From positions 1 to 64,000 of the forward strand of contig CAUYUJ010000081.1 of NCBI GenBank assembly GCA_963575745.1: a stretch of 64,000 nucleotides of DNA, read 5' to 3'. This stretch comes from Prorocentrum cordatum. Lineage: Eukaryota. Both the position numbers and the translations under genes were made by a program. The notes under the pieces were generated by a model that was not told the origin of the DNA, did not search any database, and saw nothing but the letters and a program-made list of their open reading frames with translations. Positions within the stretch are counted from its first letter, which is position 1, and each line of letters begins with the position of its first letter. Shown one piece after another: positions 3,861 to 45,688 of the stretch.

Positions 3861-5358
3861 GCTGAGGCAGGCTGATGCTGAGGCTGAGGCAGGCTGAGGC
3901 TGAAGGCAGACTGAGGCTGAGGCCGAGGCTGAAGGCAGACTGAGGCTGAGGCTGAAGCAGGCTGAGGCTGAGGCTGAGGCAGGCTGAGGCTGAGGCTGAG
4001 GCAGGCTGATGCTCAGGCAGGCTGAGGCTGAGGCTGAGGCTGATGCAGGCTGAGGCTGAGGCACGCTGAGGAGGCCGAGGCTGAAGGCAGGTAGGCTGAT
4101 GCTGAGGCAGGCTGAGGCTGAGGCTGAGGCTGATGCAGGCTGAGGCTGAGGCAGGCTGAGGCTGAGGCCAAGGCTGAAGGCAGACTGAGGCTGAGGCTGA
4201 AGCAGGCTGAGGCTGAGGCTGAGGCAGGCTGAGGCTGATGCAGGCTGATGCTGAGGCAGGCTGAGGCTGAGGCTGAGGCTGATGCAGGCTGAGGCTGAGG
4301 CAGCCTGAGGCTGAGGCTGAGGCTGAAGGCAGACTGAGGCTGAGGCTGAAGCAGGCTGAGGCTGAGGCTGAGGCAGGCTGAGGCTGAGGCTGATGCAGGC
4401 TGATGCTGAGGCAGGCTGAGGCTGAGGCTGAGGCTGATGCAGGCTGAGGCTGAGGCAGCCTGAGGCTGAGACCGAGGCTGAAGGCAGACTGAGGCTGAGG
4501 CTGAAGCAGGCTGAGGCTGAGGCTGAGGCAGGCTGAGGCTGAGGCAGGCTGATGCTGAGGCAGGCTGAGGCTGAGGCTGAGGCTCATGCAGGCCGAGGCT
4601 GAGGCAGGCGAAGGCTGAGGCCGAGGCTGAAGGCAGACTGATGCTGAGGCTGAAGCAGGCTGAGGCTGAGGCTGAGGCAGGCTGAGGCTGAGGCTGATGC
4701 AGGCTGATGCTGAGGCAGGCTGAGGCTGAGGCTGAGGCTGATGCAGGCTGAGGCTGCGGCAGCCTGAGGCTGAGGCCGAGGCTGAAGGCAGACTGAGGCT
4801 GAGGCTGAAGCAGGCTGAGGCTGAGGCTGAGGCAGGGTGAGGCTGAGGCTGAGGCAGGCTGATGCTGAGGCAGGCTGAGGCTGAGGCTGAGGCTGATGCA
4901 GGCTGAGGCTGAGGCAGGCTGAGGCCGAGGCTGAAGGCAGACTGAGGCTGAGGCTGAAGCAGGCTGAGGCTGAGGCTGAGGCAGGCTGAGGCTGAGGCTG
5001 AGGCAGGCTGATGCTGAGGCAGGCTGAGGCTGAGGCTGAGGCTGATGCAGGCTGAGGCTGAGGAAGGCTGAGGCTGAGGCCGAGGCTGAAGGCAGACTGA
5101 GGCTGAGGCTGAAGCAGGCTGAGGCTGAGGCTGAGGCTGGCTGAGGATGAGGCTGAGGCAGGCTGATGCTGAGGCAGGCTGAGGCTGAGGCTGAGGCTGA
5201 TGCAGGCTGAGGCTGAGGCAGGCTGAGGCAGGCTGAGGCTGAGGCCGAGGCTGAAGGCAGACTGATGTTGAGGCTGAAGCAGGCTGAGGCTGAGGCTGAG
5301 GCAGGCTGAGGCTGAGGCAGGCTGAGGCTGAGGCTGAGGCAGGCTGAGGCTGAGGCTG
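3861..5358. repeat. (GCTGAG)n-based compound satellite with GCAG/GATGC/GAAGGCAGAC variants
   Basis: Directly visible. The SASASA/QPQPQP ORFs over it are artefacts. Confidence 0.97.
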
Positions 5359-7003: not shown

Positions 7004-9530
7004 TGGTTCGCCTCGCGGATCGGCGACGCTGGCAATGACGAACTAATTACGTGAGGACCCGATCGTCGTGTCCGCCGCTCCGCATTGCGATGGGGAGGAG
7101 GATTGGAGAATGCCAAGCCTCAAGAGGCTCCGACTATCCCCCAAGAAGCCTACAAGGTGAAGGATCATTGGAGAACGAGGCAAGACTGCGGACAACACAG
7201 GAGGGTGTTGAAGACTCAGCCAGGGTGCTGGACTGGAACGTGTCTTAAGCTCAGCCTCCTTCCTGCCGTGCTGCTGCGCCTACGCGGTCGCGGGGGGTTC
7301 GCTGCATGCAGCTGGGCACACGAAGGGTCCGCGCAGACTCAGGAGCTCAAGAGGGATAGGGACAACCCAAGCTCACCCCTGCTGAGCCAAGGAACGCCAC
7401 GGAAACCGATCGAAGGCTGGCGAGCGCCCTGGAGCGCCAGTGAGTCACAAGGGAGCCGGCGGCCCCCACTGCTAAGGCTCTTGCGGGCTTGTCACGGGGA
7501 ATTGATGGTGTAGAGATCCTCTCAGTTCTCTTGACCAGTGAGCCGCAATTTCTGAGCAATTACTTTGTTGGACCCCCTCTCGCCACCCTGGCATTCTCGC
7601 CTCGGCGCTGGCTAGATTCTCTTCGAAAGCGAAGCTCGCGCTAGAGCATCTAGGGCTTCCACAATACGCGCGTCGTGCAGGCAGACCCCAGGTGGGCAGG
7701 CCGGGCGGGCGAGACGCTGAAGCGAGCGGGCGTGCTTCCAGGCAAGCGAACGGGCGGGCACTGACGGGCGGACACTAACGTTAGGTCGGGCATCTACAGG
7801 CGGATCTTTGGACGGAAAAAATAGTTCGCCGACCCCTTGGGGATCATCGGCGTGTGAGATGCTTCCCCCTCCCCAAACCCCTCGCCCCGGAGCCCAGTCC
7901 GGTCGATTTGGAGGGGGGGGGGGGGGCGTCCGGCTGGAGCTCACCAGGCCGGGGGGTCCGGCCCTTCCTGGGCTCCTTTTGGGGGTCCACGGCAGCTCCT
8001 GGGGCCACCCAAAAGGCCCCCAAGACGGTCCAAAAGGGTCGCCGCTCCCCCCCTTTCCTCGGGCCTCCGTCCTCAAGCACGCCAACCAAACCGAAATGCA
8101 CCAGTCCATCCGCAGCGAAACTTAGCAACGTTGTCATTGAGTCGAAGAGAATCCCCTTCCCCTTGATCCCCCCCCGGCGGAGAGGGAGGGGAGGTGTGGG
8201 TGGGGGCGGAGGGGTCCCAAGGGGGGTCGGGGGGGGCCCTGGGGGGTGGTCCCAGGTCAGAACGCCACCCTCCCAGTCCGCCCTTTCCGTCCCATTTCCG
8301 CCGGGGGCCGAGGCCCCCAGGGTCGGCGGCACCGGCCGTGAGGCCCTAGCAATGATAAGAAGAAGAGCCCTACAGCGGCGGGGAACGCCTGCGAGGGTGA
8401 GCTGACCAGCAACGACTGATTTGCGGATCGGCATATCGGCCCATGGCAGCGTTCTTGTGACAGCACGTTGCAATGGCGGCTACGGGGCGGCAGTGTCTAC
8501 GACGCCGATGGTGTCGATGACAATGATGATGTTTCACCTCAGTGCTTCGCGCGCGCGCGCCTGGAGGCTTCGCCTCCCGCGCGTCCCGCGCCCGCTCCTT
8601 CTGCGCGCGGCATAGGCACCTCAAGCGCTCCGCCCTGCTCGCATGGGCCCGCGGAGCGGCGCGGTGCAAGCGGCGCAGGGGAACTGGGCGGGGCTCCGGC
8701 CTCGTCCGCAGAGCGTCGTCCACGCGTGCCTTTACGTCGAGCCGGGCCACCTCGCGTGGGCGCTGATCATCCAAGCGAAGAGATGCGCGCGCAGCTCCCC
8801 TGGCCGTTCGAATCTGAAGTAGGACCGACGCAATCGGGAAACCGCGCATCGTGGCCATCTGCAGCGCGCCGCGCGCGCGTTCCAATCGCTGCCCGCCGCT
8901 TGTCCAAGTGCTCCTCAGACGTGCGCGCAAGCTGGATGGAGGTCCCGCGTGCGCACGCCCACCTCGATAGCGTGGTCGGCGCTTGTGATGTCGTGAACGC
9001 CGCCCGCGTTAACCTGGCAGTCGCGCGCTCCAGCGTCAAGAGCGCCTTCCGCCAGCGGCGCAGCTGACGCAGTCCTGCTTCTCGAGGGCGCCGCGGAATT
9101 GCGCGGGCAGCGATTCTGCAGGCCGCTATGATCGCCTGGCGGACATGAGTGGCGGTCGCCACTTTGCCCCCGCGCATCTTGCACCAGCGAGCCGATCTCC
9201 CTGTCGAGGCTGCCGAGAGTCTCCAGGCGCCCCCCTGCCTGCCCGCTCGCGGCGCCGCCCCGTGCCAGACCGCCGTGGGCCTCGGCCTTCTGGGCGGCGT
9301 CCCTCGCTGCGTTCGCAGACGGGAAACTGCCGTCGCTATTATGCGCCTTCGCCGCGACGCCCGTCAGGGCCACGCCCGCCAGGCAGCCGGCGCGCGTCGC
9401 CCCGCGCTGGAGCGGCGGCGGGCGGGGGCGCGAGGAACCGGCCGCCGCGCGGCATCGCGAGGAGCGGGCGGCCGCCGCGGCCCCGCGCAGGCCGGCGCCG
9501 TCGCTCGGCGCGGCATGCGCGAGAGCTCCG

Positions 9531-9551: not shown

Positions 9552-10299
9552 CCCCGGTCGCGCCCCCGCTCTGCCCGCCGCAACTGCGCCGCGCGCCCCC
9601 GGGCTGCGCCGTCGCGGCAACGGCGCTCCACCAGGCCGCCACGCGCTGCGTTTTTGCCGCGGGTGGCGCGCGCCGCAGTTGCCGAATAGACGTTGCCACC
9701 TCCACGAGAACAGATTCCCCTTTTTAATTTTCCGCGACAGTATGACTAATGCGGGTCCGCAAAAACATGATGGAACGCCCCTGGGCGCCGTAGTTGTCGT
9801 GGTTCTACGCTCCGCACGGCGCGCGCGATGCGCGAACTGCGCGCGCGACGTTCCCCCGCGGGCGCGCCGCGGTGCCAGGGGGGGGCGACAGCTCTTCCTG
9901 CCCCCGAGCCGCTCAAGACCCGGCAGGTCCACGAAGCAGCGCGCAGCGCAGGAACACTGAGAGATGGAAGAAAACGCATAGGCAACTGCTATTGTCTGAG
10001 AGCGGCACCCATGGCGGTGCTGATCATGATGCTGATGATGCCAGCCCCAGTGATGACTTCTGGCTGGGCGCCAGACGCCGTCGCGCCGCTTGCAGGAGGT
10101 CCGCCTCCGGGCGGTCGAATTCAGCTTGCCCCAGCGCGCCGCAGTCCAGCGAGTCGAATCCTTCGCTGGTTTCGAGTGGATCCCCTTGTCTGCTGCAAGC
10201 TGCGCCCTCTTTGCGGCGGGCTCCTCGGCCGAGGGGGCGACGGCGGCGCTGGCGCCGGGGCCGGGGGCCAGTCGCGCGGGGGGCGGCGCCCGCGCGCCG

Positions 10300-11701
10300 C
10301 CGGCCGGGAGTCTGCCTGCTGGGCGGCCCAGGAGGCCCTTGCCCTCCAGGCACACGCGGGCAGAGCAGTGGAGGCACGCCCGCTTGACCCGCCTAGAGGC
10401 ACTCCAGCGGGAACTCGACCGCGAGCCAGGGGTACGCGTTGCGCTCTCGCATCCGGTTCGTCTCACCCGTGGCCTCCTTGTTGTGCCTCTTCAGCATCAC
10501 CTCGGTGATGCTGATGCTCATCACGAAGACCTGGGCGTCTTCTTCGAACGCCGCGTTCCCGTCGCGCTGCCTCGGCGCCGCCATTTGGCGTCGCGACTTT
10601 CACTGTCGCCCTCGAGCAAGTCTTTCAAGAATGCCCATGGCATCTACTCTTGCGCTTTCGAGCAGAATTCAAATATCGTTGAGACAGACTTCCTCGGCGG
10701 CGAGCATGTCCTCCAGCTTGTAGGAGCCGCTGTCCGAACGCTCTCGCACCTCGAGGGGGCCTCGCAAGCCCTTCAAGAGAAATTCCTTGCCACCGCCCGG
10801 CGGGCCCAACAAGCAAACGCTTCTCTGCTTGGCGCGGCGTGTCCTCAAGGCACTCAACACTTCCCACTGGGAAGTGCCGTTGGGTCTGTTGACCGCGAAT
10901 ACATACTTATTTTATCAGGCCGTAGAAACGGCGTGCTGAAAGGACGCGAGCAAGTCTTCTGCGAGACGAGCTCCTCCAATATCTGCTCGCGACTCAGGCT
11001 TGCACGCGGCAGTTTCTCTCTAGACGTCGTGGCCTGGAGTACCCTCCCAAAAAAACATCTGGGACTCGATATCCATGAGGTACGACACAAACCCTCTGTC
11101 GAGTGCTTCGTCGAGCCCGGTGGCCTTCGCCCAAACTGATCGTTAGTGCGTATGCCGAAGTAGACGCAAGCGTCGTGGGCGGCTGGGGGGGTTCTCCAAA
11201 CCTGCCGGTCGAAACCGTCGCCCTGCATCTGGCGAAGCACCGCCTGCGCCACTGGCGTTGGCGTTCCGGCGTTGTGCCATTGCTCGCGCTCCTGGTCCGA
11301 GCCATTACCGGCTTGTGTTCCAGAGGCACCGTGCCGTAGATCGCCCCTTCCTGCCACGTCTTGATGTTCCGCCCGAACCCGACGTGGATCTTTGATGCTG
11401 CAGGAGCCTCTTAGCCACATCCAACCACCTGTATTGCTGGGAGCACCGCGCTAGGAGGTTCATGTGTGGGCGCCCGTCGGCGTCAGGCTCTTGGAAGCAA
11501 ATCGTCTCGACGACATCCAAGCCGCACTGGACATGTGCAGCCGCGCAAGCCTGTCTAAAGATAGCCCGTGTGAAGTCCAACGGCGTCTTGATCCATTGCC
11601 GCGCCACCGTGGCCTCTGCTAGGAAAGCAAAGCTAGTACGCGTACTGACCATGGTTGCCCTGCCCGCGCTGCGGGGGGCCGTCCAAGGCAAGGGCAGCCA
11701 T
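10300..11701 (-). pseudogene. rep: Degenerate rolling-circle Rep (HUH endonuclease + SF3 helicase), CRESS-virus-like endogenous element or transposon
   Basis: Motifs occur in the expected order across frameshifts: MAALALD..GQYAY*LCFP (motif I-like); ETICFQEPDADGRPHMNLLAR (motif II, ~11458-11490); GAIYGTVPLEHKP (motif III Tyr, 11336-11338); VCLLGPPGGGKEFLLK (Walker A, 10786-10806); EEVCLND (Walker B); WAFLKDLLEG; QVFVMS (motif C-like); RMRER (Arg finger-like); CLHC. Confidence 0.8.
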
Positions 11702-11715
11702 AGTCTGGCAGCCAA

Positions 11716-11738
11716 CTTGAGCCGACGTGGCTTGCGGA
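11716..11738 (-). other. Relict DinoSL directly upstream of the Rep ATG
   Basis: TCCGCAAGCCACGTCGGCTCAAG versus TCCGTAGCCATTTTGGCTCAAG (18/22 plus one insertion). It ends 14 nt before the ATG at 11701. Confidence 0.6.
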
Positions 11739-12479
11739 ACGGCGCAGACATAAGGAATGGCCATAATAAGCTCTGAAACAAACAGCCGATAAGTAAAGTT
11801 CCAAATCGCACAGTGGACTGGACGGAACGCGCGAAGGCTCGGAGCGAACAACCCTGGACACAATTAAACTCACAGACGCCTTGAGCCCCACTTCAATGTC
11901 GGCCCCTCCAGTGTCAAAGGACGCCGTCGCATGCTCTGGGGGGGGTGCGACTTGGCAGTTCCATGCTGACCGACGTTGCAAAGAGGGCGCCAACAAATAC
12001 TTCGCACTCATTGGCATCCGATCCCACGCACTCAGATGCGCAAGTACCGCAGGTTCTTTGTCAGACGACTTTGCGCGCTGGCCTCTGGCACTGCGTGGAT
12101 CCTTCAATTTTGGACAGTAACAACTTCTCGGAAATCCAGACACTCTGGACCACTGGCGCCGTCCAACCCTGAACGCCCGCGCCGGGGTCGCTGCTGCGTC
12201 GACGAGGCGCGAACCTACCGTAAGATAGATTTGCGGGTTCAATTTTGTCGAGGGCTGTAGTTCTCGCCGTCTGAAGGGCGTGTCTGAATGTCGAGGCTAC
12301 CACCAAATCATCTGTCACACGACGGCTTCCCAGGTCTTCTGCGTTGCACTGTTTGGAACGTGGACCCCGCAACTCTCCAACACCTCTCCAGGGCCAACTC
12401 TTCGTCTCGACCACTTTGTGTGATGGTCCTGGGGTCGAAGAGCAGTCCTCAAAACCCAAAAATAGCGGAACGCATCTGT

Positions 12480-12786: not shown

Positions 12787-13223
12787 CTGTTTCTGTCGGA
12801 CGACGGCAAGATCAGGATAGAGTCTGGTGAATATGAATCGGGGATCTTTGAGAATCGCTGGGTCTAGGGACCGTGGCTGTCCTAGAGCGTTCCGGCCAGC
12901 CCTGGAGCGATTTATCCTCATCCAACCTGTCTGACTCCTCCTCCTCCCCCTCCTCCCCCTCCTCGTCCTCCTCCTCCTCCTCCTGACAAGGAAAAGACGC
13001 AGCAGGGGGTAGGACGAAGGGGAAGAGCAGGAAAAGTAACGGCAGGGCCAGGCGTTCTGACCAGAATCTCGACCCTCAACTTTCCTCGATCCTCGATCCT
13101 CTTCCTCCTGAGCTTCAAGCGGTTTAGCTGGAGCTCGAGGGGGGCATGTAAACTTGCTCGCTTACCCGCACACGCGTGTGGGTCGCTTGGGTATGCAGAG
13201 AAAAACTCAAGCATCAGAAAGGA

Positions 13224-13668
13224 CTCCTCCTCCTCCTCCTCCTCCTCCTCCTCCTCCTCCTCCTCTTCCTCCCTGCTCTCCTGCTCCCTGCTCCCCTGCT
13301 CTCCTCCTCCTCCTCCTCCTCCTCCTCTCCTCCTCCTCCTCCTCCTCCTCCTCCTCCTCCTCCTCCTCCCCCTTCTCCTCCCCGCCTCCTCCTGCTCCCT
13401 GCTCCCTGCTCCCTGCTCCCCTCCTCCTCCTCTTCTCCTCCTCCTCCCCCTCCTCCCCCTCCTCCTCCTCCTCGTCCTTCTCCTCCCTCCTCCTCCTCCT
13501 CCTCTCCTCCTCCCACATCCTCCTCCTTCTTCTTCTCCTCCTCCTCCTCCTCCTCCTCCTCATCCCTGCTTCCCTGCTCCCTGCTCCTTCCTCCTCCTCC
13601 TCCTCCTCCTCCTCCTCTCCTCCTCCTCCTCCTCCTCTCCTCCTGCTCCTCCTCCGCCTCCTCCTCCT
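13224..13668. repeat. (CCT)n microsatellite with CCCTGCT units
   Basis: Directly visible. Confidence 0.95.
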
Positions 13669-13998
13669 TTCACGTTTCTGAAGACCGTGGGCCCGCGATG
13701 CTCCACTAGATCTCGCTCCCTAAACCTCCTTCTCCTCAATGATCCCACTTGGAGGGTGGGAGTTGGGCCGTTTTCAACCTGGGCCAAGATCGTGTGGGGA
13801 GCTGCCACTGCGCGAGACGGAGGAATCACCCTGCCCGAACTTAGGGATTTTGTTGCCCCCATTTGAGCTGCTCCCCCCAAGGTGGTTGGACTCCAGGGGC
13901 CCCTTCGGAGCGTGCCTTCTCTCGCTCAGCAGACTTGATTGGAAGTCCGTCAGTGCGTTCGAGTTTTCGGAAGTGGATGGCTCACTCTTTCCCCTCAC

Positions 13999-15681: not shown

Positions 15682-16763
15682 TGCTGCTGCTGCTGCTGCT
15701 GCTGCTCCTCCCCCTCCTCCTCCTCCTCCTCCTCCTCCTCGTCCTCCTCCTCCTCCTCCTCCTCCTCCTCCTGCTCCTCCTCCTCGGCCCCCTCCACCTC
15801 CTCCTCCTCCTCCTCCTCCTCCTCCTCATCCTCCTCTCTCCTCCTCCTCCTCCTCCTCCTCCTCCGCCTCCCCCTCCCCCCCCTCCTCCTCCTCCTCCTC
15901 CTCCTCCTCCTCCTCCTCCTCCTCCTCCTCCTCCTCCTCCTCCTCCTCCTCCATCTTCCACTCTTCCTCCTCTCTCCTCCCTCCTCCTCTCCTCCTCTCT
16001 TCCTCCTCCTCCCTCCTCCTCCCCCTCCTTCCTCCTCTTCCTTCTCCTCTCCTCCCTCCTTCCTCCTCCTCCCCTCCTCCTCCCCTCCTCCTCACTCCTC
16101 CTCCCCCTCCTCCCCCCCCCCCCCTCCTCCTCCTCCTCCTCCTCCTCCTCCTCCTCCTCCTCCTCCTCCTCCTCCTCCTCCTCCTCCTCCTCCTCCTCCT
16201 CCTCCTCCTCCCCCTCCTCCCCATACACCTCCGCCTCCTCCTCCTCCTCCTCCTCCTCCTCCGCCTCCTCCTCCTCCTCATCATCATCCCGCTCCTCCTG
16301 CTCTCCTGATCTCCTGCTCTCTCCTCCTCCTCCTCCTCCTCCTCGTCGTCCTCCTCCTCCCCTCCTCCTCCTCCTCCTCCTCCCCCGCCTCATCCCCGCC
16401 TCCTCCTCCTCCTCCTACTCCTCCTCCTCCTCCTCCTCCTCCTCCTCCTCCTCTCCCTCCTCCTTACTCCTCCTCGTACTCCTCATCTTACTCCTCCTCA
16501 TACTCCCCCCTCCACCTCCTCCTTCTCCTCCTCCTCCTCCGCCTCCTCCTCGTCTCTCTCCTCCTCCTCTGCCTCGTTCTCCTCCTCCTCCCCCCCCCCT
16601 CCTCCTCCGCATCCTCCTCCTCCTCCTCCTCATCCCCTCCCCTCATCCTTCTCCTCCGCCTCCTCCACCTCCTTCTCCTCCTCCTCCTCCTCCTCCGCCG
16701 TCTCTCATCGCTCCCCCCCATCCTCCGCCTCCTCCTCCTCCGCCTCATCCTCATCCTCGTTAG

Positions 16764-16801
<38 letters not shown>

Positions 16802-16802
16802 G

Positions 16803-16900
<98 letters not shown>

Positions 16901-17315
16901 GCATCATCGTCAGCGTCAGCATCAGCAACAGCATCATCATCACCAGCGTTATCATCATCATCATCAGCAGCGTCAGCATCAGCATCATCATCATCATCAG
17001 CATCAGCGTCATCATCATCACTTCATCATGTCATCATTTCATCAGCATCACCAACAGTACCATCATCATCATCATCATCATCATCAGCATCATCAACATC
17101 ATCAGCAGCGTCAGCATCAGCAGCATCATCACCATCAGCATCATCACCATCATCAGTATCATCAGCATCAGCATCATCAGCGTCAGCATCAGCATCACCA
17201 TCATCATCATCATCAGCATCATCATCAGCATCATCACCATCAGCATCATCATCATCAGCATCATCACCACCACCACCACCACAACCATCATCATCATCAT
17301 CATCATCATCATCGT

Positions 17316-17346
<31 letters not shown>

Positions 17347-17348
17347 AG

Positions 17349-17383
<35 letters not shown>

Positions 17384-17742
17384 CCATCTTCATCTTCATC
17401 TTCATCTTCATCTTCATCTTCATATTCATCTTCATCCTCCTCCCCCTCCTCTTCCTCCCCCTCCTCATCATCCTCCCTGCCCACATCCTCCTCCTGATCC
17501 TCCTCCTGATCCTCCTCCTCCTCCGCCTCCTCCACATTCTTCTCCTCCCCATCCTCCTCATCCGCTCCTCATCCTCCTCTTCCCCGCTCCCGCATCATCC
17601 CTGCTCCCTCCTCCTCCTCCTCCTCCTCCTCCTCCTCCTCCTCCTCCTCCTCCGTCCCCTCCTCCTCCTCCTTCCTCTGCTCCTTCCTCATGCGTCCTCA
17701 GCCTCCTTCTCCTCCTTCTCCTCCTTCTCCTCCTCCTCCTCA

Positions 17743-17825
<83 letters not shown>

Positions 17826-18257
17826 AGCATCATCATCATCATCATCATCAGCATCATCATCATCAGCATCAGCATCAGCATCAGCATCATCATCATCATC
17901 ATCATGATCATCATCAGCATCAGCATCATCAGCAGCATCATCATCATCACCACCACCACCACCATCATCATCATCAGCAGCATCATCATCATCATCAGCA
18001 GCATCAGCATCAGCATCAGCATCAGCATCAGCATCATCATCAGCATGAGCAAGAGCAAGAGCATGAGCATGAGCATGAGCATGATCAGCGTCAGCGTCAT
18101 CAGCATCATCATCATCATCAGCATCATCATCAGCATCATCAGCATCAGCATCAGCATCAGCATCATCATCAACATCATCATCATCAGCAGCATCATTCAT
18201 CATTCATTCATCATCCATCATCATCATCATCATCATCAGCATCAGCATCAGCATCAG

Positions 18258-18311
<54 letters not shown>

Positions 18312-29955: not shown

Positions 29956-31935
29956 TACTCACTACTCATTACTCACTACTGACTACTCGCTTTTCGCTAC
30001 TCACTTCTCACTACCCCCTACTCAGTACTCACGACTCACTACTCACTATCCACTACTCACTACCCACCACCCACTACTCGCTACTCACTACTCCCTACTC
30101 ACTCCTCCCTCCTCCCTACTCACTCCTCACTACTCAATACTCACACTACTGACGAAGCACTACTCACTACTCCCTACTCGCTACTCACTAATCACTACTC
30201 ATTACCCACTACCCACTATCCACTACTCACTACTAACTACCCACAAATCACTACTCCTACCCACTACTCGCTACTATCTACTCACTACTCCCTACACAAT
30301 ACTGAATACACAGTACTCAGTACTCACTACTCGCTACTCCAATACTACGCTACTCAATACTCACTACTCACTCCCAACTACTCACTATTCACTACTCACT
30401 ACTTACTACTCCCTACTCACTAGCTACTATCTACTCACTACTCCCTACACAATACTGAATACACAGTACTCAGTACTCACTACTCGCTACTCCAATACTC
30501 GCTACTCAATACTCACTAGTCACTACATAGTCTCTAGTCACTAGTCACAACTCACTAGTCACTACTCACTACCCACTACCCACGACTCACCAATCGCTAC
30601 TCACTAGCCACTATTCGCTACCCACATCTTACAACTCACTGCTCACTACTCCCTACTCCCTACTCACTACATCGCTACTCCCTACTCGTTACTCACTAAT
30701 CACTACCCACTACTCACTACTGACTGCTCTCTAATCACTACTCACTACTCACTAGGCCCTACTCGCTCCTCACGACTCACTACTCACTATCCACTACTCA
30801 CTACCCACCACCCACTACTCGCTACTCACCACTCCCTACTCACTCCTCCCTCCTCCCTACTCACTCCTCACTACTCAATACTCACACTACTGACGAAGCA
30901 CTACTCACTACTCCCTACTCGCTACTCACTAATCACTACTCATTACCCACTACCCACTATCCACTACTCACTACTAACTACCCACAAATCACTACTCCTA
31001 CCCACTACTCGCTACTATCTACTCACTACTCCCTACACAATACTGAATACACAGTACTCAGTACTCACTACTCGCTACTCCAATACTCGCTACTCAATAC
31101 TCACTACTCACTCCCAACTACTCACTATTCACTACTCACTACCTACTACTCCCTACTCACTAGTCACTACATAGTCTCTAGTCACTAGTCACAACTCACT
31201 AGTCACTACTCACTACCCACTACCCACGACTCACCAATCGCTACTCAGTAGCCACTATTCGCTACCCACATCTTACAACTCACTGCTCACTACTCCCTAC
31301 TCCCTACTCACTACATCGCTACTCCCTACTCGTTACTCACTAATCACTACCCACTACTCACTACTGACTGCTCTCTAATCACTACTCACTACTCACTAGG
31401 CCCTACTCGCTCCTCACTACTCACTACTCGCTACTCCCTACTCGCTACTCACTACACAGTCACTACCCACTATTCTCTATTCATCACTACTCACTACGCA
31501 CCACGTACTATTCAATACTCACCACTCACTACTCACTACTCACTGCTCGCTACTCACTACTCACTACTCACTACTCACTACTCACTACTCACTACTCCCT
31601 GCTCACTACTAACTATTCGCTACTCACTACTCACTACTCACTACGCACTACGCACTACCCACTATTCACTACTCTCTGATCACTACTCGCCACCCACTAC
31701 TCACTACGCACTAACTCACTGCCCACTATTCATTACTCCCTACTCCCTATTCAGTACTCACTACTCGCTACTCGCTACTCACTACTCACTACTCGACACT
31801 CACTACTCACTTATCAGTACACACGACTCACTATTCATTACTCACTACTCCCTACTCCCTACTCGCTCACTACTCACTACGCACTAACTCACTACTCACT
31901 ACTCACCACTCCCTACTCCCAACTCCGTACTCCCT
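29956..31935. repeat. (CACTACT)n heptamer satellite with a ~740-bp higher-order duplication
   Basis: The marker GACGAAGCAC occurs at 30151 and 30892, and the variant pattern after it is repeated. Confidence 0.95.
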
Positions 31936-33769
31936 ACACGGGGGAGGGGGTCCGACCCCCCCCCCCCTTCCAACGCCAAGGGGGGAAAGGGGGGGGGGGG
32001 GGTCGGGAACCCCCTTCCCCCCCTGAAGGGGGGAGAGAGGGGGGGGTTCCGGACCCCCCCCCCCCTTTGAAGGAGGGGAGGGGGGGGGGTTCTGGACCCC
32101 CCCCTCTTTAGTGGATTCAGGGAGATCCACTGGCGCACTTTCCGAAAGTGGCGCCTCTCTCGTTTTGTTGATCGATGGCTTCCAGGCCTCAAGAGGGCCT
32201 CTACAGCCTCCATGAGGACCCAAGAGGGTCTCAATGGTCCCCCCAATTGGCCCCACGAGAGGACCAAGGAAGACCAGAGGTCTCCAAACTGGCCCCGCGA
32301 GACCTGCAAGGCGCTCCCACGGCGAACGATCTGCCAAGGCCTTGAGGGGTACCCATGTCGTCACCGTCGTAAACGTAGTCCTTCCCCAAACCCGCGAAGA
32401 CGGATGTGGCTCATTCCTGAGCTGCATGCTGCTGCACATCCCTGATCAGGGCAACTCGACTGGGGTCTGTTGTTGGATGGGCTGGTGGGGGTACGCGAAG
32501 CATGCAGAATGTACCTCACACACCATGCTCAATGTTTGAATCCGAGCGTGCATACCAAGTCAATGAGTGGTACAATAAGATTGCCAGCGCAAGTGTGACG
32601 AGCATGTCCCCACTTACTGCTGAAGTTCATTGCCTGTTCGCATCGCCTCTCACATGGTAATCCTTTGCAGAGCATAGATAATATGCAGTCCTGTGCCTGC
32701 TCGGCCTCGAGCTGTATTTGCCTAGCGCGGCGGCGTACACACAAATTGACACATGCAATGGATCGTCCTCCAAACTGGGGAGACGAACGTCCCGCATGGG
32801 AATGAACAACAACATCAACGTGCTAATTCCATCGCTTCCCAAAAAAGGCTGACCGACCTGCCGATTCTCATCGCAATTCCGCGCGCGATCATGAGTCTCT
32901 CGCAGTACGGGCTTCCGTGTGCGCGCATGATCACGTGGAGCTGCAATTCCCATGGTGCATGAAACGAGGGTTCAGCGAAAGGGGCTCCAGCGAACCAACT
33001 ACGACACTGACGCAACAGTGGTTTCCCAACGCTTTCTGGCGCCAGAAACCATTGTGCATAACGGGAAGTGTCCTATGGCGATGCCGAAACTAGCTGCAGG
33101 CTGCAGAGTACGCCCCAAGCTTCACACACATGAAGCCACCTCTTTCTCGGAGGAGGGCCGATTCAGATAACGGCGGCCCTCCCGCCAAGCCCAAATCCGC
33201 TCAAAAGCGTTTCCCAAACCGCTCCTGGGGTCCATTCTGCCCCTTTCATCGGACTGGATCCAGGAGACCCGAAATGCATGAACCACGCCAGGCAGGGTCG
33301 ACGCTGCTCTGACTGGCCCTCTCTCTCGCCGGTTTTTTCCGTCCTAGCGAATCGCGCAGAGTGAGAGCGCGACGAGCGTGGTGCGTGCCGTCGGGAAGGA
33401 GAGGGACCCCCCCTCCTCCCACGGAACCTCGCCGAGCACGTCCCGGCCAGGATCTCCACTTTGGGGGGTCCCACGACCGCGCGGTGGCAGACTGCGCGGT
33501 GACCTCGGAGACCCGAGAAGCTTCACCGCACTGTCGGTCACCGCATGGTTTTGAGGCCCTGGAGGCCCCACTGGCCTCAGGTCGGGCATGTCCCCCTAGA
33601 GGCGGATTTCGGAGGAAAAATAGAACACCGTCAAAACAGACTCCAGAATAGCCCAACAAATAACAGAGAAGTCGTACCGGGACTATTTGTTGGTTTTCGG
33701 ATACTCCTCCTGTAGATGGACAGGCCCGACGTAACCCTGGAGGCCCCACTCGCCCACTCAAACGTTTTT

Positions 33770-42552: not shown

Positions 42553-44065
42553 GGGGCCACGATCCTCGTGAGGGATGTGCCGCTATGGCCCGGGGCCGCC
42601 ATGCGAACCCTGCCACTGGCGCCTTCGGTGGAGCTCCAGTGGGGCCACGGTCCTCGTGAGCCGAAATGGCCCGAGGCCGCCATGCGAACCCTGCCACTGG
42701 GGCCTTCGGTGGAGCTCCCCATAGGGCCACGATCCTCGTGAGGGGTGTGCCGAAATGGCCCGAGGCCGCCATGCGAACCCTGCCACTGGCGCCTTCGGTG
42801 GAGCTCCCTATGGGGCCACGATCCTCGTGAGGGGTGTGCCGAAATGGCCCGAGGCCGCCATGCGAACCCTGCCACTGGCGCCTTCGTGGAGCTCCCTATG
42901 GGGCCACGATCCTCGTGAGGGGTGTGCCGAAATGGCCCGAGGCCGCCATGCGAACCCTGCCACTGGGGCCTTCGGTGGAGCTCCCTATGGGGCCACGATC
43001 CTCGTGAGGGGTGTGCCGAAATGGCCCGAGGCCGCCATGCGAACCCTGCCACTGGCGCCTTCGGTGGAGCTCCCTATGGGGCCACGATCCTCGTGAGGGG
43101 TGTGCCGAAATGGCCCGAGGCCGCCATGCGAACCCTGCCACTGGCGCCTTCGGTGGAGCTCCCTATGGGGCCACGATCCTGATGAGGGGTGTGCCGAAAT
43201 GGCCCGAGGCCGCCATGCGAACCCTGCCACTGGCGCCTTCGGCGGGGCTCCCTATGGGGCCACGATCCTCGTGAGGGGTGTGCCGAAATGGCCCGAGGCC
43301 GCCATGCGAACCCTGCCACTGGGGCCTTCGGTGGAGCTCCCTATGGGGCCACGATCCTCGTGAGGGGTGTGCCGAAATGGCCCGAGGCCGCCATGCGAAC
43401 CCTGCCACTGGCGCCTTCGGTGGAGCTCCCTATGGGGCCACGATCCTCGTGAGGGGTGTGCCGAAATGGCCCGAGGCCGCCATGCGAACCCTGCCACTGG
43501 CGCCTTCGGTGGAGCTCCCTATGGGGCCACGATCCTCGTGAGGGGTGTGCCGAAATGGCCCGAGGCCGCCATGCGAACCCTGCCACTGGCGCCTTCGGTG
43601 GAGCTCCCTATGGGGCCACGATCCTCGTGAGGGGTGTGCCGAAATGGCCCGAGGCCGCCATGCGAACCCTGCCACTGGGGCCTTCGGTGGAGCTCCCTAT
43701 GTGGCCACGATCCTCGTGAGGGGTGTGCCGAAATGGCCCGAGGCCGCCATGCGAACCCTGCCACTGGCGCCTTCGGCGGGGCTCCCTATGGGGCCACGAT
43801 CCTCGTGAGGGGTGTGCCGAAATGGCCCGAGGCCGCCATGCGAACCCTGCCACTGGCGCCTTCGGTGGAGCTCCCTATGGGGCCACGATCCTCGTGAGGG
43901 GTGTGCCGAAATGGCCCGAGGCCGCCATGCGAACCCTGCCACTGGAGCCTTCGGTGGAGCTCCCTATGGGGCCACGATCTTCGTGAGGGGTGTGCCGAAA
44001 TGGCCCGAGGCCGCCATGCGAACCCTGCCAGTGGGGCCTTCGGTGGAGCTCCCTATGGGGCCACG
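42549..44065 (+). repeat. 89-bp tandem array, ~17 near-identical copies
   Basis: Unit CTATGGGGCCACGATCCTCGTGAGGGGTGTGCCGAAATGGCCCGAGGCCGCCATGCGAACCCTGCCACTGGCGCCTTCGGTGGAGCTCC; no unique spacers. Confidence 0.98.
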
Positions 44066-45688
44066 AAGCGGTGGGTGAAACGCAGGGATGAAGAGGAGGA
44101 AGGGGGCAGCGGGAGGAGTGGACGCGGGGCGCTGTCTCTTCAAAACGAGGACCCAACACCACAGGATGGTTGGGAATAAGGAGCGGCGAAGCACTGGCGA
44201 GCATTGCAGCACTCGTCGCCGCCGAACCGGCCTGCCAAAAAACGGGACCGCGGTGTGGCCGCCGAACCGAAACGGCCAAACAAACCCGACCGACAGATCA
44301 AACTCCTGAGAACTGGCCAGCCGCCGACACCGAAATGCGCCCTCTGCCGAGCCGGCCCGAATCGTATGTACCAAACCAGGCCCTTCCTGGAAGTGTCGAG
44401 CGGTGCGATAGTGACGAGGGCCCGCCTCCATCTGTGTAACTGTTGGACACCAAACCGCAGCATGTGAGACAGCGGCAAGGGCAGCTCCTCCTGCTACCAA
44501 TAAACTTTCAGACGCGCCGAACAAAAAACAAATGGGGGCTCTTCTGGCCACCGGGAGCCTTGGCCACGCATGGGTCCCGCGACCTGGACCGCAAAAGTGG
44601 CCCGAACAAAAACCCGAAGTGGTCCCCAGTAGCTAGATTCTAATATAACAGGGCGGCCCAAGCGCACGTTTGCGTATCTGGTCTTCGATCACCTGGGGCG
44701 GGCGGGGTGTCGGTTGTCGGCTTGTGCCTCGGTGGTGGGTCGGGGCTGGTGGCGGTAGCGATACCGCGGCCCCGTGAGGGGCCGGGGGCGCGAGTGCCGA
44801 AAGATGGCCCCCCGCCTTTCTTTTCTTCCTTTCTTGTCATGCGCTTCGCGATGGGTCGCGTATTTCAACGGGGTCACCCGGGCGATCAACTATGCGTAGT
44901 GCGTCCCCCCCTTGGCGATGTTTCTTTCTTTCGTACGGCCGTTGGTGCAATCCGCACGCGTGCTGGAAAATGGCGAAAGCAATTATGACACCCTGGGGGC
45001 TGGGTGCGCACCATGTAATTGCATGTCGGGATCATTCGAAAGCCCTTGCGCGCGTGCTGGGGGGGGCGCCATGCGTGTCAAATAACACCACGCGGGCCAC
45101 TCGGCGCATCGGCCGCGCGTGCATGGCCGACGCGATGACGTCATCATCGACATCGGCGGGCGCGATCAGCATCGGCGCCGTCATTGGCCTTGCTGTCGTC
45201 GTCGCCACCATCGTCACCATCATCGCTACTGTCATACTCGTGTCTACCGTGGTCGGCGTCGCCATGATACCGCGCCCGCCCAAGTCACCGAGTCGCACTG
45301 CGGTGCCCGCTGGAAGTGCCCAGCGGTCAACGCCACCGCGGCCGCGTCGGTCGCGCCAAATTAGCTGGCCTCTGTGCGCGCGAGCATGCGCGGGCTAGCG
45401 TCGCCGCGCTGATGCACTAGCCAACGCCAAGCACTCATCATAATCGCCGCCGCATGGGTTCTGCAAACCAAATTGCGAGTGGCTAGGAGGTTCGCAACAG
45501 CGTGGCGTTTACCAACTCATGTGGAAAAAAGAAACGATGACACCCTTAAGTTCATGATGGCCCCGAGGGCCGGGTGCGTACCATGTAACAACTTGAGAAC
45601 CTGCCGACGCACGCCTGACTAACCCTGTGCCGTTGATAATCACACCATGTGGATCATATATTTCGGGGTGGGCCCCGGGATGATAATT

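Follow-up and report, generated by a model that had tools for sequence, protein, structure and literature searches.

A decayed Rep–transposase gene pair as the probable relic of a capsid-less, self-replicating mobile element

Degraded Rep and transposase genes on the minus strand

The stretch of DNA analyzed here, called the window throughout, comprises 64,000 nucleotides (nt; positions 1 to 64,000 of the forward strand) of contig CAUYUJ010000081.1 in assembly GCA_963575745.1. Between 12113 and 8547 its minus strand carries the remains of two genes, one for a replication initiator (Rep) that joins an HUH-type nuclease to a superfamily 3 (SF3) helicase and one for a Tc1/mariner-type transposase. 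Together they probably represent a dead chromosomal copy of a mobile element that consisted of these two genes, had no capsid gene, replicated itself and integrated by means of its transposase. The recognizable parts of the two genes are as follows.

10087–11701, minus strand: Rep pseudogene, with an HUH-type (H-U-N) nuclease/origin-binding domain, an oligomerization domain, an SF3 helicase, a CxxC ribbon, a KRAxL patch resembling a nuclear localization signal (NLS) and a SHOCT-like tail
11452–11490, minus strand: motif II region, EPDADGRPHMNLL; the consensus in the family is EPHAxGxPHLNLLV, and the nearly invariant His75 is Asp here
11312–11341, minus strand: motif III region, IYGTVPLEHK; its Tyr and Lys correspond to Y124 and K132 of P0001, both invariant in the family
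10786–10806, minus strand: Walker A, GPPGGGK(E), with Glu in place of the Ser that ends the family consensus G-x5-GKS
10675–10689, minus strand: Walker B, VCLND; the family consensus is LVFLNDFEYD, and the window copy has a stop immediately after
10516–10530, minus strand: motif C region, VFVMS, at the place of APVFxTAP in the family consensus
10441–10455, minus strand: RMRER, the putative Arg-finger region
10353–10376, minus strand: CxxC of a zinc-ribbon-like element, CLHCSARV, corresponding to the family-invariant C437 and C440
10093–10125, minus strand: AEFDRPEADLL, what is left of the SHOCT-like C-terminal helix; SHOCT is matched by 38 of 50 family members
about 9514 to 8547, minus strand: Tc1/mariner-type transposase pseudogene (DD35E in its relatives)

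Three minus-strand frames jointly spell about 525 Rep residues, from an ATG at 11701 (MAALALDGPP...) to 10087. In ungapped tblastn, 11 collinear segments running from 11701 to 10087 match residues 1–526 of the relative P0001 with 41–86% identity per segment; successive segments change phase, which amounts to at least 10 frame changes, and small deletions are present as well. The original prediction, made from the sequence of this stretch, had placed the feature at 10300–11701; the tblastn match to P0001 reproduces the start at 11701 exactly and moves the end to 10087, and the motifs quoted in that prediction were all recovered where it had put them, on the minus strand and in different frames. 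At least two in-frame stops interrupt the gene, one at codon 23 (11635–11633), where relatives have Trp, and another in the segment FEFCSKAQE* within the helicase part. Invariant or nearly invariant residues are altered too: His75 to Asp, the Ser after the Walker Lys to Glu and the Phe after LND to Ile. With its frame changes, stops, deletions and replaced invariant residues, the Rep copy in the window is a pseudogene.

This is the single Rep copy in the window, and its closest relative is P0095, with 61% identity over 482 aligned residues. Contigs of one public sequencing run, which may be the assembly's own sample, are identical to 10689–10893 and 10924–11083; since the contig matching 10924–11083 spans one of the Rep frame breaks, that break is present in a second data set. 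For the Rep stretch the public runs included no listed RNA run and two DNA runs, with small shares and partial contig coverage.

The transposase gene was located by tblastn with the transposase of L001, one of the metagenome loci described below (E 2.2e-38), and its segments were mapped against that protein and P0223. A single frame change lies near 9170, and about 79 residues are deleted, among them the QDHE block with the second catalytic Asp. Of the remaining motifs, YTDG has become CARG, with loss of the first Asp, and DLNPIE has become DQRPRE. This gene, too, is a pseudogene.

An uncharacterized family of Rep proteins

A search of 1.84 billion representatives with the open reading frame (ORF) fragment at 11305–11892 (minus strand) gave 94 proteins at E ≤ 1e-3, 25 of them at E ≤ 1e-10; P0001 (527 amino acids [aa], E 2.7e-29, 63% identity) ranked first. 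With P0001 as the query, 76 near-full-length relatives were found, mostly 480–560 aa long and encoded on contigs of 1.1–9.1 kb from ENA, JGI and Logan. The only name that any of them bears is "hypothetical protein", and we regard them as an uncharacterized family of about 500–550 aa. Scans of the window fragments with Pfam and PHROGs yielded nothing beyond weak P-loop matches, and a word-indexed search for longer proteins containing the 80-aa Walker fragment yielded no match.

An alignment of 50 full-length members has a mean column identity of 46% and several well-conserved blocks. The N-terminal part contains GQYVYW, ETACFxEPHAxGxPHLNLLV and GVVYGxVASEHK, in which Y124 and K132 are invariant and E73, H75, H81 and N83 each reach a conservation of 90% or more. 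The helicase part contains GxxDCGKSF (G300 and K306 invariant), LVFLNDFEYD, FKxFLEGxxVxVxxPK, APVFxTAP and ETxQMxxR (R415 invariant). Toward the C-terminus follow the CxxC with its two invariant cysteines, a basic KRxR patch and a helix pair that corresponds to the Pfam SHOCT family. The gene is under purifying constraint, with a nonsynonymous divergence (dN) of 0.19 and a synonymous divergence (dS) of 1.36 between L003 and L004.

Three of the 50 members (P0165 and two others) carry C-terminal CCHC zinc knuckles in place of SHOCT. Two candidate assignments were rejected. A gammaproteobacterial metagenome-assembled genome contributed a single 39-residue P-loop match, the only one among prokaryote genomes, and was dismissed as a relative. 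A cellular host gene family was dismissed likewise: the structural relatives are all viral or plasmid initiators, and the gene is paired with a transposase gene in repeated units.

Rep combines an HUH-type fold with an SF3 helicase

An AlphaFold model of full-length P0001 reached a mean predicted local distance difference test score (pLDDT) of 88.9, and the N-terminal 170 residues, modeled alone from 11 metagenome sequences, reached 87.6. When this N-terminal model was searched with Foldseek, the top 10 matches were all Rep nuclease or origin-binding domains: wheat dwarf virus Rep was the best (E 8.6e-4), and the Reps of tomato yellow leaf curl virus (TYLCV) and Vientovirus and the origin-binding domain of adeno-associated virus (AAV) were also found. 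An unbiased, Foldseek-independent comparison with 48,161 chains in VIA-align placed HUH Reps at 9 of the top 11 positions, among them Vientovirus Rep (Z 8.4), TYLCV Rep (7.4), nanovirus M-Rep (6.8), circovirus Rep (6.7), AAV5 Rep (6.7), RepB (6.5) and NS1 of minute virus of mice (6.4). These HUH Rep superpositions align 92–131 residues at a root-mean-square deviation (rmsd) of 2.8–4.3, with Z 6.3–8.4, a range that is middling by VIA-align's own note.

The motifs follow one another in the model as strand 19–26, strand 80–92 with H-L-N, and helix 118–126 with the invariant Tyr. H81 and N83 of motif II lie on strand 80–92 and would form a metal site of the H-U-N type, and Y124, invariant in 50 of 50 sequences and located in helix 118–126, is the putative catalytic Tyr. 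The original prediction had wondered whether the Asn in the HMN of the window copy was decay or a family trait; it proves to be a family trait, as at least 90% of the 50 members have Asn at this position. A profile search of the PDB gave five weak matches (E 0.32 and 1.6 for Rep), of which two are geminivirus Rep nuclease domains and another is papillomavirus E1, with the motif II block aligned with geminivirus Rep. Neighbors of the Rep N-terminus in the ESM Atlas carry Gemini_AL1, Viral_Rep, Rep_OBD or PPV_E1_DBD (score 0.89), which we treat as a lead only. The consistent list of fold matches, the motif order and the motif II sequence match agree in pointing to the HUH class.

For the helicase, residues 169–457 of the model superpose on papillomavirus E1 with Z 17.7 (rmsd 3.4, 260 residues aligned), on AAV2 Rep40 with Z 17.6, on parvovirus B19 NS1 with Z 17.2 and on simian virus 40 (SV40) large T antigen with Z 13.2. 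The best PDB match of the full-length model in Foldseek was AAV2 Rep68 (E 1.4e-11, about 500 columns), and its top matches in BFVD were papillomavirus E1, many parvovirus NS1 proteins, Reps of CRESS (circular, Rep-encoding, single-stranded) DNA viruses and U94 of human herpesvirus 6 (HHV-6). At E ≤ 0.1, Parvo_NS1 matched 17 of the 50 members (best E 7.8e-6) and PPV_E1_C matched 16 (best E 1.1e-5); both remain under the Pfam cut-offs, PPV_E1_C with 16.1–22.1 bits in three of seven members against a cut-off of 26.5. Beyond the invariant Gly and Lys of Walker A (G-x5-GKS), N342 of Walker B (LNDFE) is invariant and D343 at least 90% conserved. In motif C, T391 is invariant, and the position right after it has no conserved Asn; R415 was named the Arg finger from its position only.

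Taken as a whole, the models and the alignment show a Rep in which an HUH-type fold is succeeded by an oligomerization domain and an SF3 helicase, with a CxxC ribbon, a basic patch like an NLS and a tail of the SHOCT type toward the C-terminus. The HUH plus SF3 architecture suggested in the original prediction is thus borne out at the level of fold and motifs, with the qualification that the strict HUH reads H-U-N.

Rep and transposase genes occur and diverge together

A scan of JGI and NCBI metagenome contigs supplied 21 loci with relatives of Rep, eight of which also contain a transposase gene (L001, L003, L007, L009, L010, L011, L012 and L014), always on the Rep strand. The order, Rep and then transposase, is identical at all eight and in the window. 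The spacing is 0.6–1.1 kb, with 1.6 and 3.3 kb in the L011/L012 type.

Intact transposases from Rep-bearing contigs are 390–446 aa long. HTH_Tnp_Tc3_2 matched three of four with 32.0–36.6 bits (cut-off 31.5), and DDE_3 was found in 7 of 10 ORFs scanned, always under its cut-off (at most 25.6 against 28.6). A YTDG / QDHE / DLNPIE triad is visible, with DLNPIE 35 residues past the second Asp by our count. HTH_Tnp_Tc3_2, the DDE_3-like core and DLNPIE at DD35E spacing assign these proteins to the Tc1/mariner superfamily. They belong to a large family, for which 248 relatives were found at E ≤ 1e-5, and the gene is constrained (dN 0.22 between L009 and L014, with dS saturated). The pair L009 and L010, with a pN of 0.75 that probably reflects a frame error, was set aside.

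Judged from their sequences, Rep and transposase co-diverge. Their pairwise identities correlate with r 0.775 over seven loci, a value equaled or exceeded in 14 of 5040 permutations of a Mantel test that omitted L011, a near-duplicate of L012, and drew its signal mostly from the L009/L010/L014 group. For both genes, L001 is the two-gene locus nearest to the window, with 52% identity in Rep (39–45% for the others) and 48% in the transposase (33–42% for the others). Indirect support comes from the longest contigs in the Rep and transposase match lists: nine, plus one more, are of equal size in both lists, where about two would be expected by chance.

The two genes form units of 4.3–5 kb that are head-to-tail or circular in marine metagenomes, where intact relatives of the element occur commonly. 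L003 has an exact 141-nt end overlap and a unit of 5018 nt, which fits a circle; the end repeats of L001, L010 and L014 are 88–99% identical, with periods of 4346, 4987 and 4300/4385 nt, respectively. About 1.5–2.2 kb of each unit is repeat-rich non-coding DNA. With Rep and transposase masked, tblastx and blastn among seven loci revealed no third conserved ORF and no capsid gene, the only shared sequence being palindromic DNA; the window contains no capsid gene either, which agrees with the original prediction that none adjoins Rep.

Several loci depart from this plan in ways that we record separately. In L002:1–2988, Rep is 99% identical to that of L003, but where the transposase half would be, the 576 nt following Rep recur in inverted orientation; the flanking inverted repeats end in small palindromes, and the unit may have arisen as a snap-back or non-autonomous derivative. 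In units of the 8.3 kb type, the transposase frame is split into five collinear pieces with gaps of 90–210 nt, alike in both contigs (L011:3464–5194 and L012:849–2582). These gaps may be introns, insertions or signs of a shared pseudogene; of four junctions, the one inspected closely has no clear GT-AG. The Rep genes of L011 and L012 have one frame change at the identical place.

Hairpins, palindromes and iterons

A long nested hairpin lies 150–440 nt upstream of the Rep ATG in L001–L004, L006 and L007. Its stem holds a 13-nt motif, present without mismatch in 8 of the 21 loci, that is kept between lineages whose Reps are just 50–57% identical; by its sequence conservation, the hairpin behaves like a putative nick site. 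Two degenerate copies of this hairpin-arm motif are found upstream of Rep in the window.

11890–11902, minus strand: three mismatches, 190–200 nt upstream of the Rep ATG; weak, with 15 such hits in the window against 10.9 expected
12101–12113, minus strand: two mismatches, about 400 nt upstream of the Rep ATG; 2 such hits in the window against 1.1 expected

By themselves both copies are non-significant, and the copy at 12101–12113 is backed by its position only; position 12113 may, weakly, mark the minimum extent of the element on the side upstream of Rep. DNA folding of two intergenic stretches of the window gave z values of −0.96 and +1.37, and no hairpin is kept in either.

Between Rep and the transposase gene, the relatives have a second structure, a palindrome with arms of 117–180 nt that lie 0–7 nt apart (L001, L003 and L014). 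Its center is AT-rich, and each arm has two copies of a short, lineage-specific iteron (GGGTNNTTGT type), the cores being TAATTG, TAGTTG, TTCTTG, TACTTG or TATCTTG according to lineage. AT-rich palindromes with iterons were located at the following positions.

L003:2417–2657
L001:2771–3021
L014:4105–4464
L007:2428–2575
L012:112–195

The lineage-specific iterons suggest co-evolution with a sequence-specific DNA-binding domain. Variable iterons round an AT-rich center resemble an origin of the E1/T-antigen type and also abutted transposon ends. In L007, an identical 260-nt sequence precedes both genes, and Rep is flanked by inverted copies.

Surroundings of the locus

Beyond the element, many contigs of two public runs match 12142–12200 with four to six differences and then diverge, so that this stretch looks like the edge of a dispersed repeat. 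On the other side, just past the Rep remnant, 9988–10111 is rich in CATCAT/GATCAG and reaches summed contig depths of 1734 and 164 in two runs; it is probably a common low-complexity repeat. A stretch of CTC-rich low complexity at 12886–13866, with poly-Pro, poly-Ser, poly-Leu and poly-Glu open frames on both strands, is where any further upstream part of the element would lie, and nothing recognizable was found in it. Large tandem arrays occupy 42656–44066, 3861–5358, 29956–31937 and 15705–18311; their units are an 89-nt repeat (15.9 copies at 97% identity), 22/155-nt repeats of the GCTGAGG type over 1.5 kb, a 7-nt TACTCAC repeat (282 copies) and CTC/TCA triplets over 1–1.5 kb. An Rfam search of the window returned 0 families.

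Discussion

We read the genes at 12113–8547 as a dead chromosomal copy of a two-gene, capsid-less, self-replicating and transposase-integrating mobile element, a reading that we consider right with a probability of roughly two in three. Gene 1 would have encoded a replication initiator whose nuclease used one catalytic Tyr and a metal site in which HUH is varied to H-U-N. Such a Rep would multiply the element as an extrachromosomal replicon or concatemer, either in rolling-circle or rolling-hairpin mode after a nick at the conserved hairpin or, like E1 and large T antigen, by opening the iteron palindrome. The Tc1/mariner DD35E transposase would then insert copies into the nuclear genome of a protist and perhaps excise them; the window copy would have been inserted first and have decayed afterwards. 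A wider proposal is that such elements, as self-replicating DDE transposons or integrating nuclear plasmids, form a new class of eukaryotic mobile element, in which an HUH plus SF3 initiator amplifies a 4–5 kb replicon at the hairpin and/or the palindrome and a co-evolving transposase shuttles it between episome and chromosome, and that this class is spread widely among marine dinoflagellates and abounds in ocean metagenomes. We offer this as a tentative idea, quite possible but short of probable.

The original prediction had offered two alternatives, an endogenized single-stranded DNA virus and a capsid-less rolling-circle transposon. Neither fits fully, because both missed the transposase that is linked with Rep at 8 of the 21 loci and co-diverges with it; a composite of Rep and DDE transposase describes the element better.

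A number of observations weigh against our reading. The activities of Rep and transposase are predictions from sequence and model. At the protein level, the fold scores of the N-terminal domain are middling, and the strict HUH metal site is lacking across the family, in which the second His is Asn (P-H-L-N). Of the Pfam profiles put forward as a check in the original prediction, Parvo_NS1 answers weakly, as described above, and Gemini_AL1, Viral_Rep and RNA_helicase are absent among the 25 of 28 families listed for the 50 members at E ≤ 0.1. Rep_OBD is absent from the same 25, and curated Rep profiles were also without a match in seven members at E ≤ 1. A pattern scan of 2.9 million IMG/VR contigs produced 32 pattern matches, none of which was confirmed as a relative of Rep.

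Other objections concern the unit. Thirteen of the 21 loci have no transposase gene, most of them on contigs too short to show one; in L013 and L015, of the 8.3 kb type, the transposase gene is more than 3 kb from Rep; and L002 is a Rep-only unit between inverted repeats of at least 254 nt. The non-identical end repeats of L001, L010 and L014 are better explained by tandem arrays in a chromosome than by circles, and the end overlap of L012 falls in a 96-nt tandem repeat. Between 6500 and 14000 of the window, a search for repeats and palindromes returned only GC-rich noise and low-complexity arrays, with no significant palindrome. Element termini, terminal inverted repeats (TIRs), a target-site duplication and an element–host junction were neither recognizable in the window nor definable in the relatives. 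Finally, the window has the hairpin remnant first, then Rep and then the transposase, an order that misfits a simple model with the Rep–transposase palindrome as the transposon ends and that argues against this palindrome as the integration junction of the window copy.

The best-surviving rival, which we nevertheless regard as unlikely, is that Rep is a passenger or accessory of a cut-and-paste Tc1/mariner transposon, captured from a virus and now employed for something other than autonomous replication, for instance in end processing, in repair or in the control of copy number. The palindromes between the genes do look like abutted inverted repeats, the arrangements in L007 and L002 place Rep between inverted copies, and the non-identical end repeats suggest tandem copies in a chromosome. 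Against this stand the purifying selection on all initiator motifs (Tyr, metal site, Walker A and B, Arg finger) in lineages that are 45–80% identical, the nick-site-like conservation of the hairpin motif between distant Reps, and the circular or head-to-tail units of several relatives.

That the window holds an endogenous element of a true CRESS-like or parvovirus-like virus strikes us as distinctly unlikely. Its capsid gene would have to lie on another segment, be too divergent to recognize or be borrowed from a helper, and the transposase would act as its integrase. Such a virus would account for the best structural matches, all of them viral initiators (parvovirus NS1, AAV Rep68, papillomavirus E1 and CRESS Reps), as well as for the small units and the contigs that are circular by end overlap; it has against it the lack of a third conserved ORF in the seven masked loci, the failure of the IMG/VR pattern scan to produce a relative and the repeat-rich, non-coding nature of about 1.5–2.2 kb per unit. 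Chance adjacency through nested or neighboring insertions of unrelated repeats, which the size of the Tc1/mariner family and the repeat-rich genomes might favor, is very improbable given the constant order and strand at all eight loci and in the window, the similar spacing of 0.6–1.1 kb, the congruent divergence and the fact that one locus, L001, is nearest to the window for both genes.

The host of the proposed two-gene element would be a marine protist, probably a dinoflagellate. The description of the window as a dinoflagellate-type genome in the original prediction is plausible rather than proven: the sole named relative of the transposase, which is also the only taxonomic label obtained, lies on a 186,694-nt contig of Prorocentrum cordatum, and the G+C content of the window is 55–72%, but a search of the window for spliced-leader relics gave 0 matches.

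The dead copy itself matters only because it leads to the family and attests integration into a chromosome. If our reading is correct, a conserved, co-evolving pairing of Rep and DDE transposase in a small capsid-less unit would be a new architecture and would offer a tangible intermediate to models of how viruses, plasmids and transposons exchange replication and integration modules; it would also explain the virus-free entry of Rep-like sequences into protist genomes. The Rep family is divergent, with a nuclease domain that Pfam does not recognize and an H-U-N metal site that is directly testable. An element that replicates and integrates in dinoflagellate nuclei could, in addition, be a lead toward vectors for organisms that are hard to transform.

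Comparison with known systems

Rep-encoding replicons and DDE transposons are both among the oldest selfish DNA, and in eukaryotes they are treated as separate, with CRESS viruses, parvoviruses, Helitrons and Replitrons in one group and Tc1/mariner transposons in the other. Among the former, the Rep family resembles the type of parvovirus NS1, AAV Rep68-78 and HHV-6 U94, with which it shares the order of an HUH nuclease with one Tyr, an oligomerization bundle and an SF3 helicase; AAV Rep68 and parvovirus NS1 are its best full-length structural matches. It differs from parvovirus NS1 and AAV Rep in its low identity to them (12–16%), its H-U-N site, its CxxC ribbon and its SHOCT tail. AAV Rep mediates integration. 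Unlike parvoviruses, the element has no VP capsid gene and no demonstrated terminal hairpins, and it has a linked DDE transposase gene.

The Reps of CRESS viruses, including geminiviruses, and of pCRESS plasmids are the best matches of the N-terminal domain alone, and motif II (E-x-H-x-x-G-x-P-H-L) aligns with geminivirus Rep. CRESS viruses and the element alike have small units and a hairpin upstream of Rep. A non-His second HUH position, H-U-Q, is also given for CRESS Reps in the legend of Figure 1 of the Replitron paper (PMC10288648). In contrast to CRESS Reps, the family described here is larger (about 520 aa) and has a helicase of the parvovirus/papillomavirus type, and the element has no capsid gene and keeps its conserved motif in the hairpin stem rather than in a loop nonanucleotide. 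Lacking a capsid gene and any match above the cut-offs of the curated family profiles, the element falls outside membership of the CRESS viruses and parvoviruses.

Helitrons and Replitrons are, like the element, capsid-less and eukaryotic and built around an HUH Rep, but they are not known to carry a DDE transposase. Helitron Rep has two Tyr and a fused Pif1 (SF1B) helicase. Replitron Rep, as described in the Replitron paper (PMC10288648), has no fused helicase; the main text of that paper contains neither "dinoflagellate" nor "DDE". The element is not a Helitron because its helicase is SF3 by fold and motif III has a single invariant Tyr, and, on that description of Replitrons, it is not a Replitron because each of the 50 aligned Rep members has a fused SF3 helicase. 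The original prediction had set both groups aside on account of their helicases, correctly as it turned out.

With Tc1/mariner transposons of the IS630-Tc1-mariner group, gene 2 of the element shares HTH_Tnp_Tc3_2, the DDE_3-like DD35E core and DLNPIE, and inverted repeats are present. Classical members have a transposase gene only, between TIRs that are short or of the inverted repeat/direct repeat (IR/DR) type, whereas the element co-inherits a 1.6 kb initiator-helicase gene; palindromes and inverted repeats are seen in it, but no Tc1/mariner TIRs or TA duplication were definable. The transposase itself is ordinary-looking Tc1/mariner, and it is the pairing with Rep that seems to be new: searches of PMC and bioRxiv turned up no description of a Rep plus Tc1/mariner element or of this Rep family, although an earlier description is possible in subscription journals or Repbase, which lay outside those searches.

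Polintons/Mavericks, casposons and Spiroplasma plectroviruses with IS-type transposases likewise combine a replication gene with a separate integrase of the DDE or another type. They rely on a protein-primed polymerase or are capsid-bearing phages, whereas the element would use an HUH plus SF3 initiator and a Tc1/mariner integrase in a eukaryote. If the tentative proposal of a new class holds, that class would stand beside Polintons and casposons as their Rep-based counterpart and would exemplify, in living form, the transitions from plasmid to transposon to virus that have been proposed for small DNA viruses.

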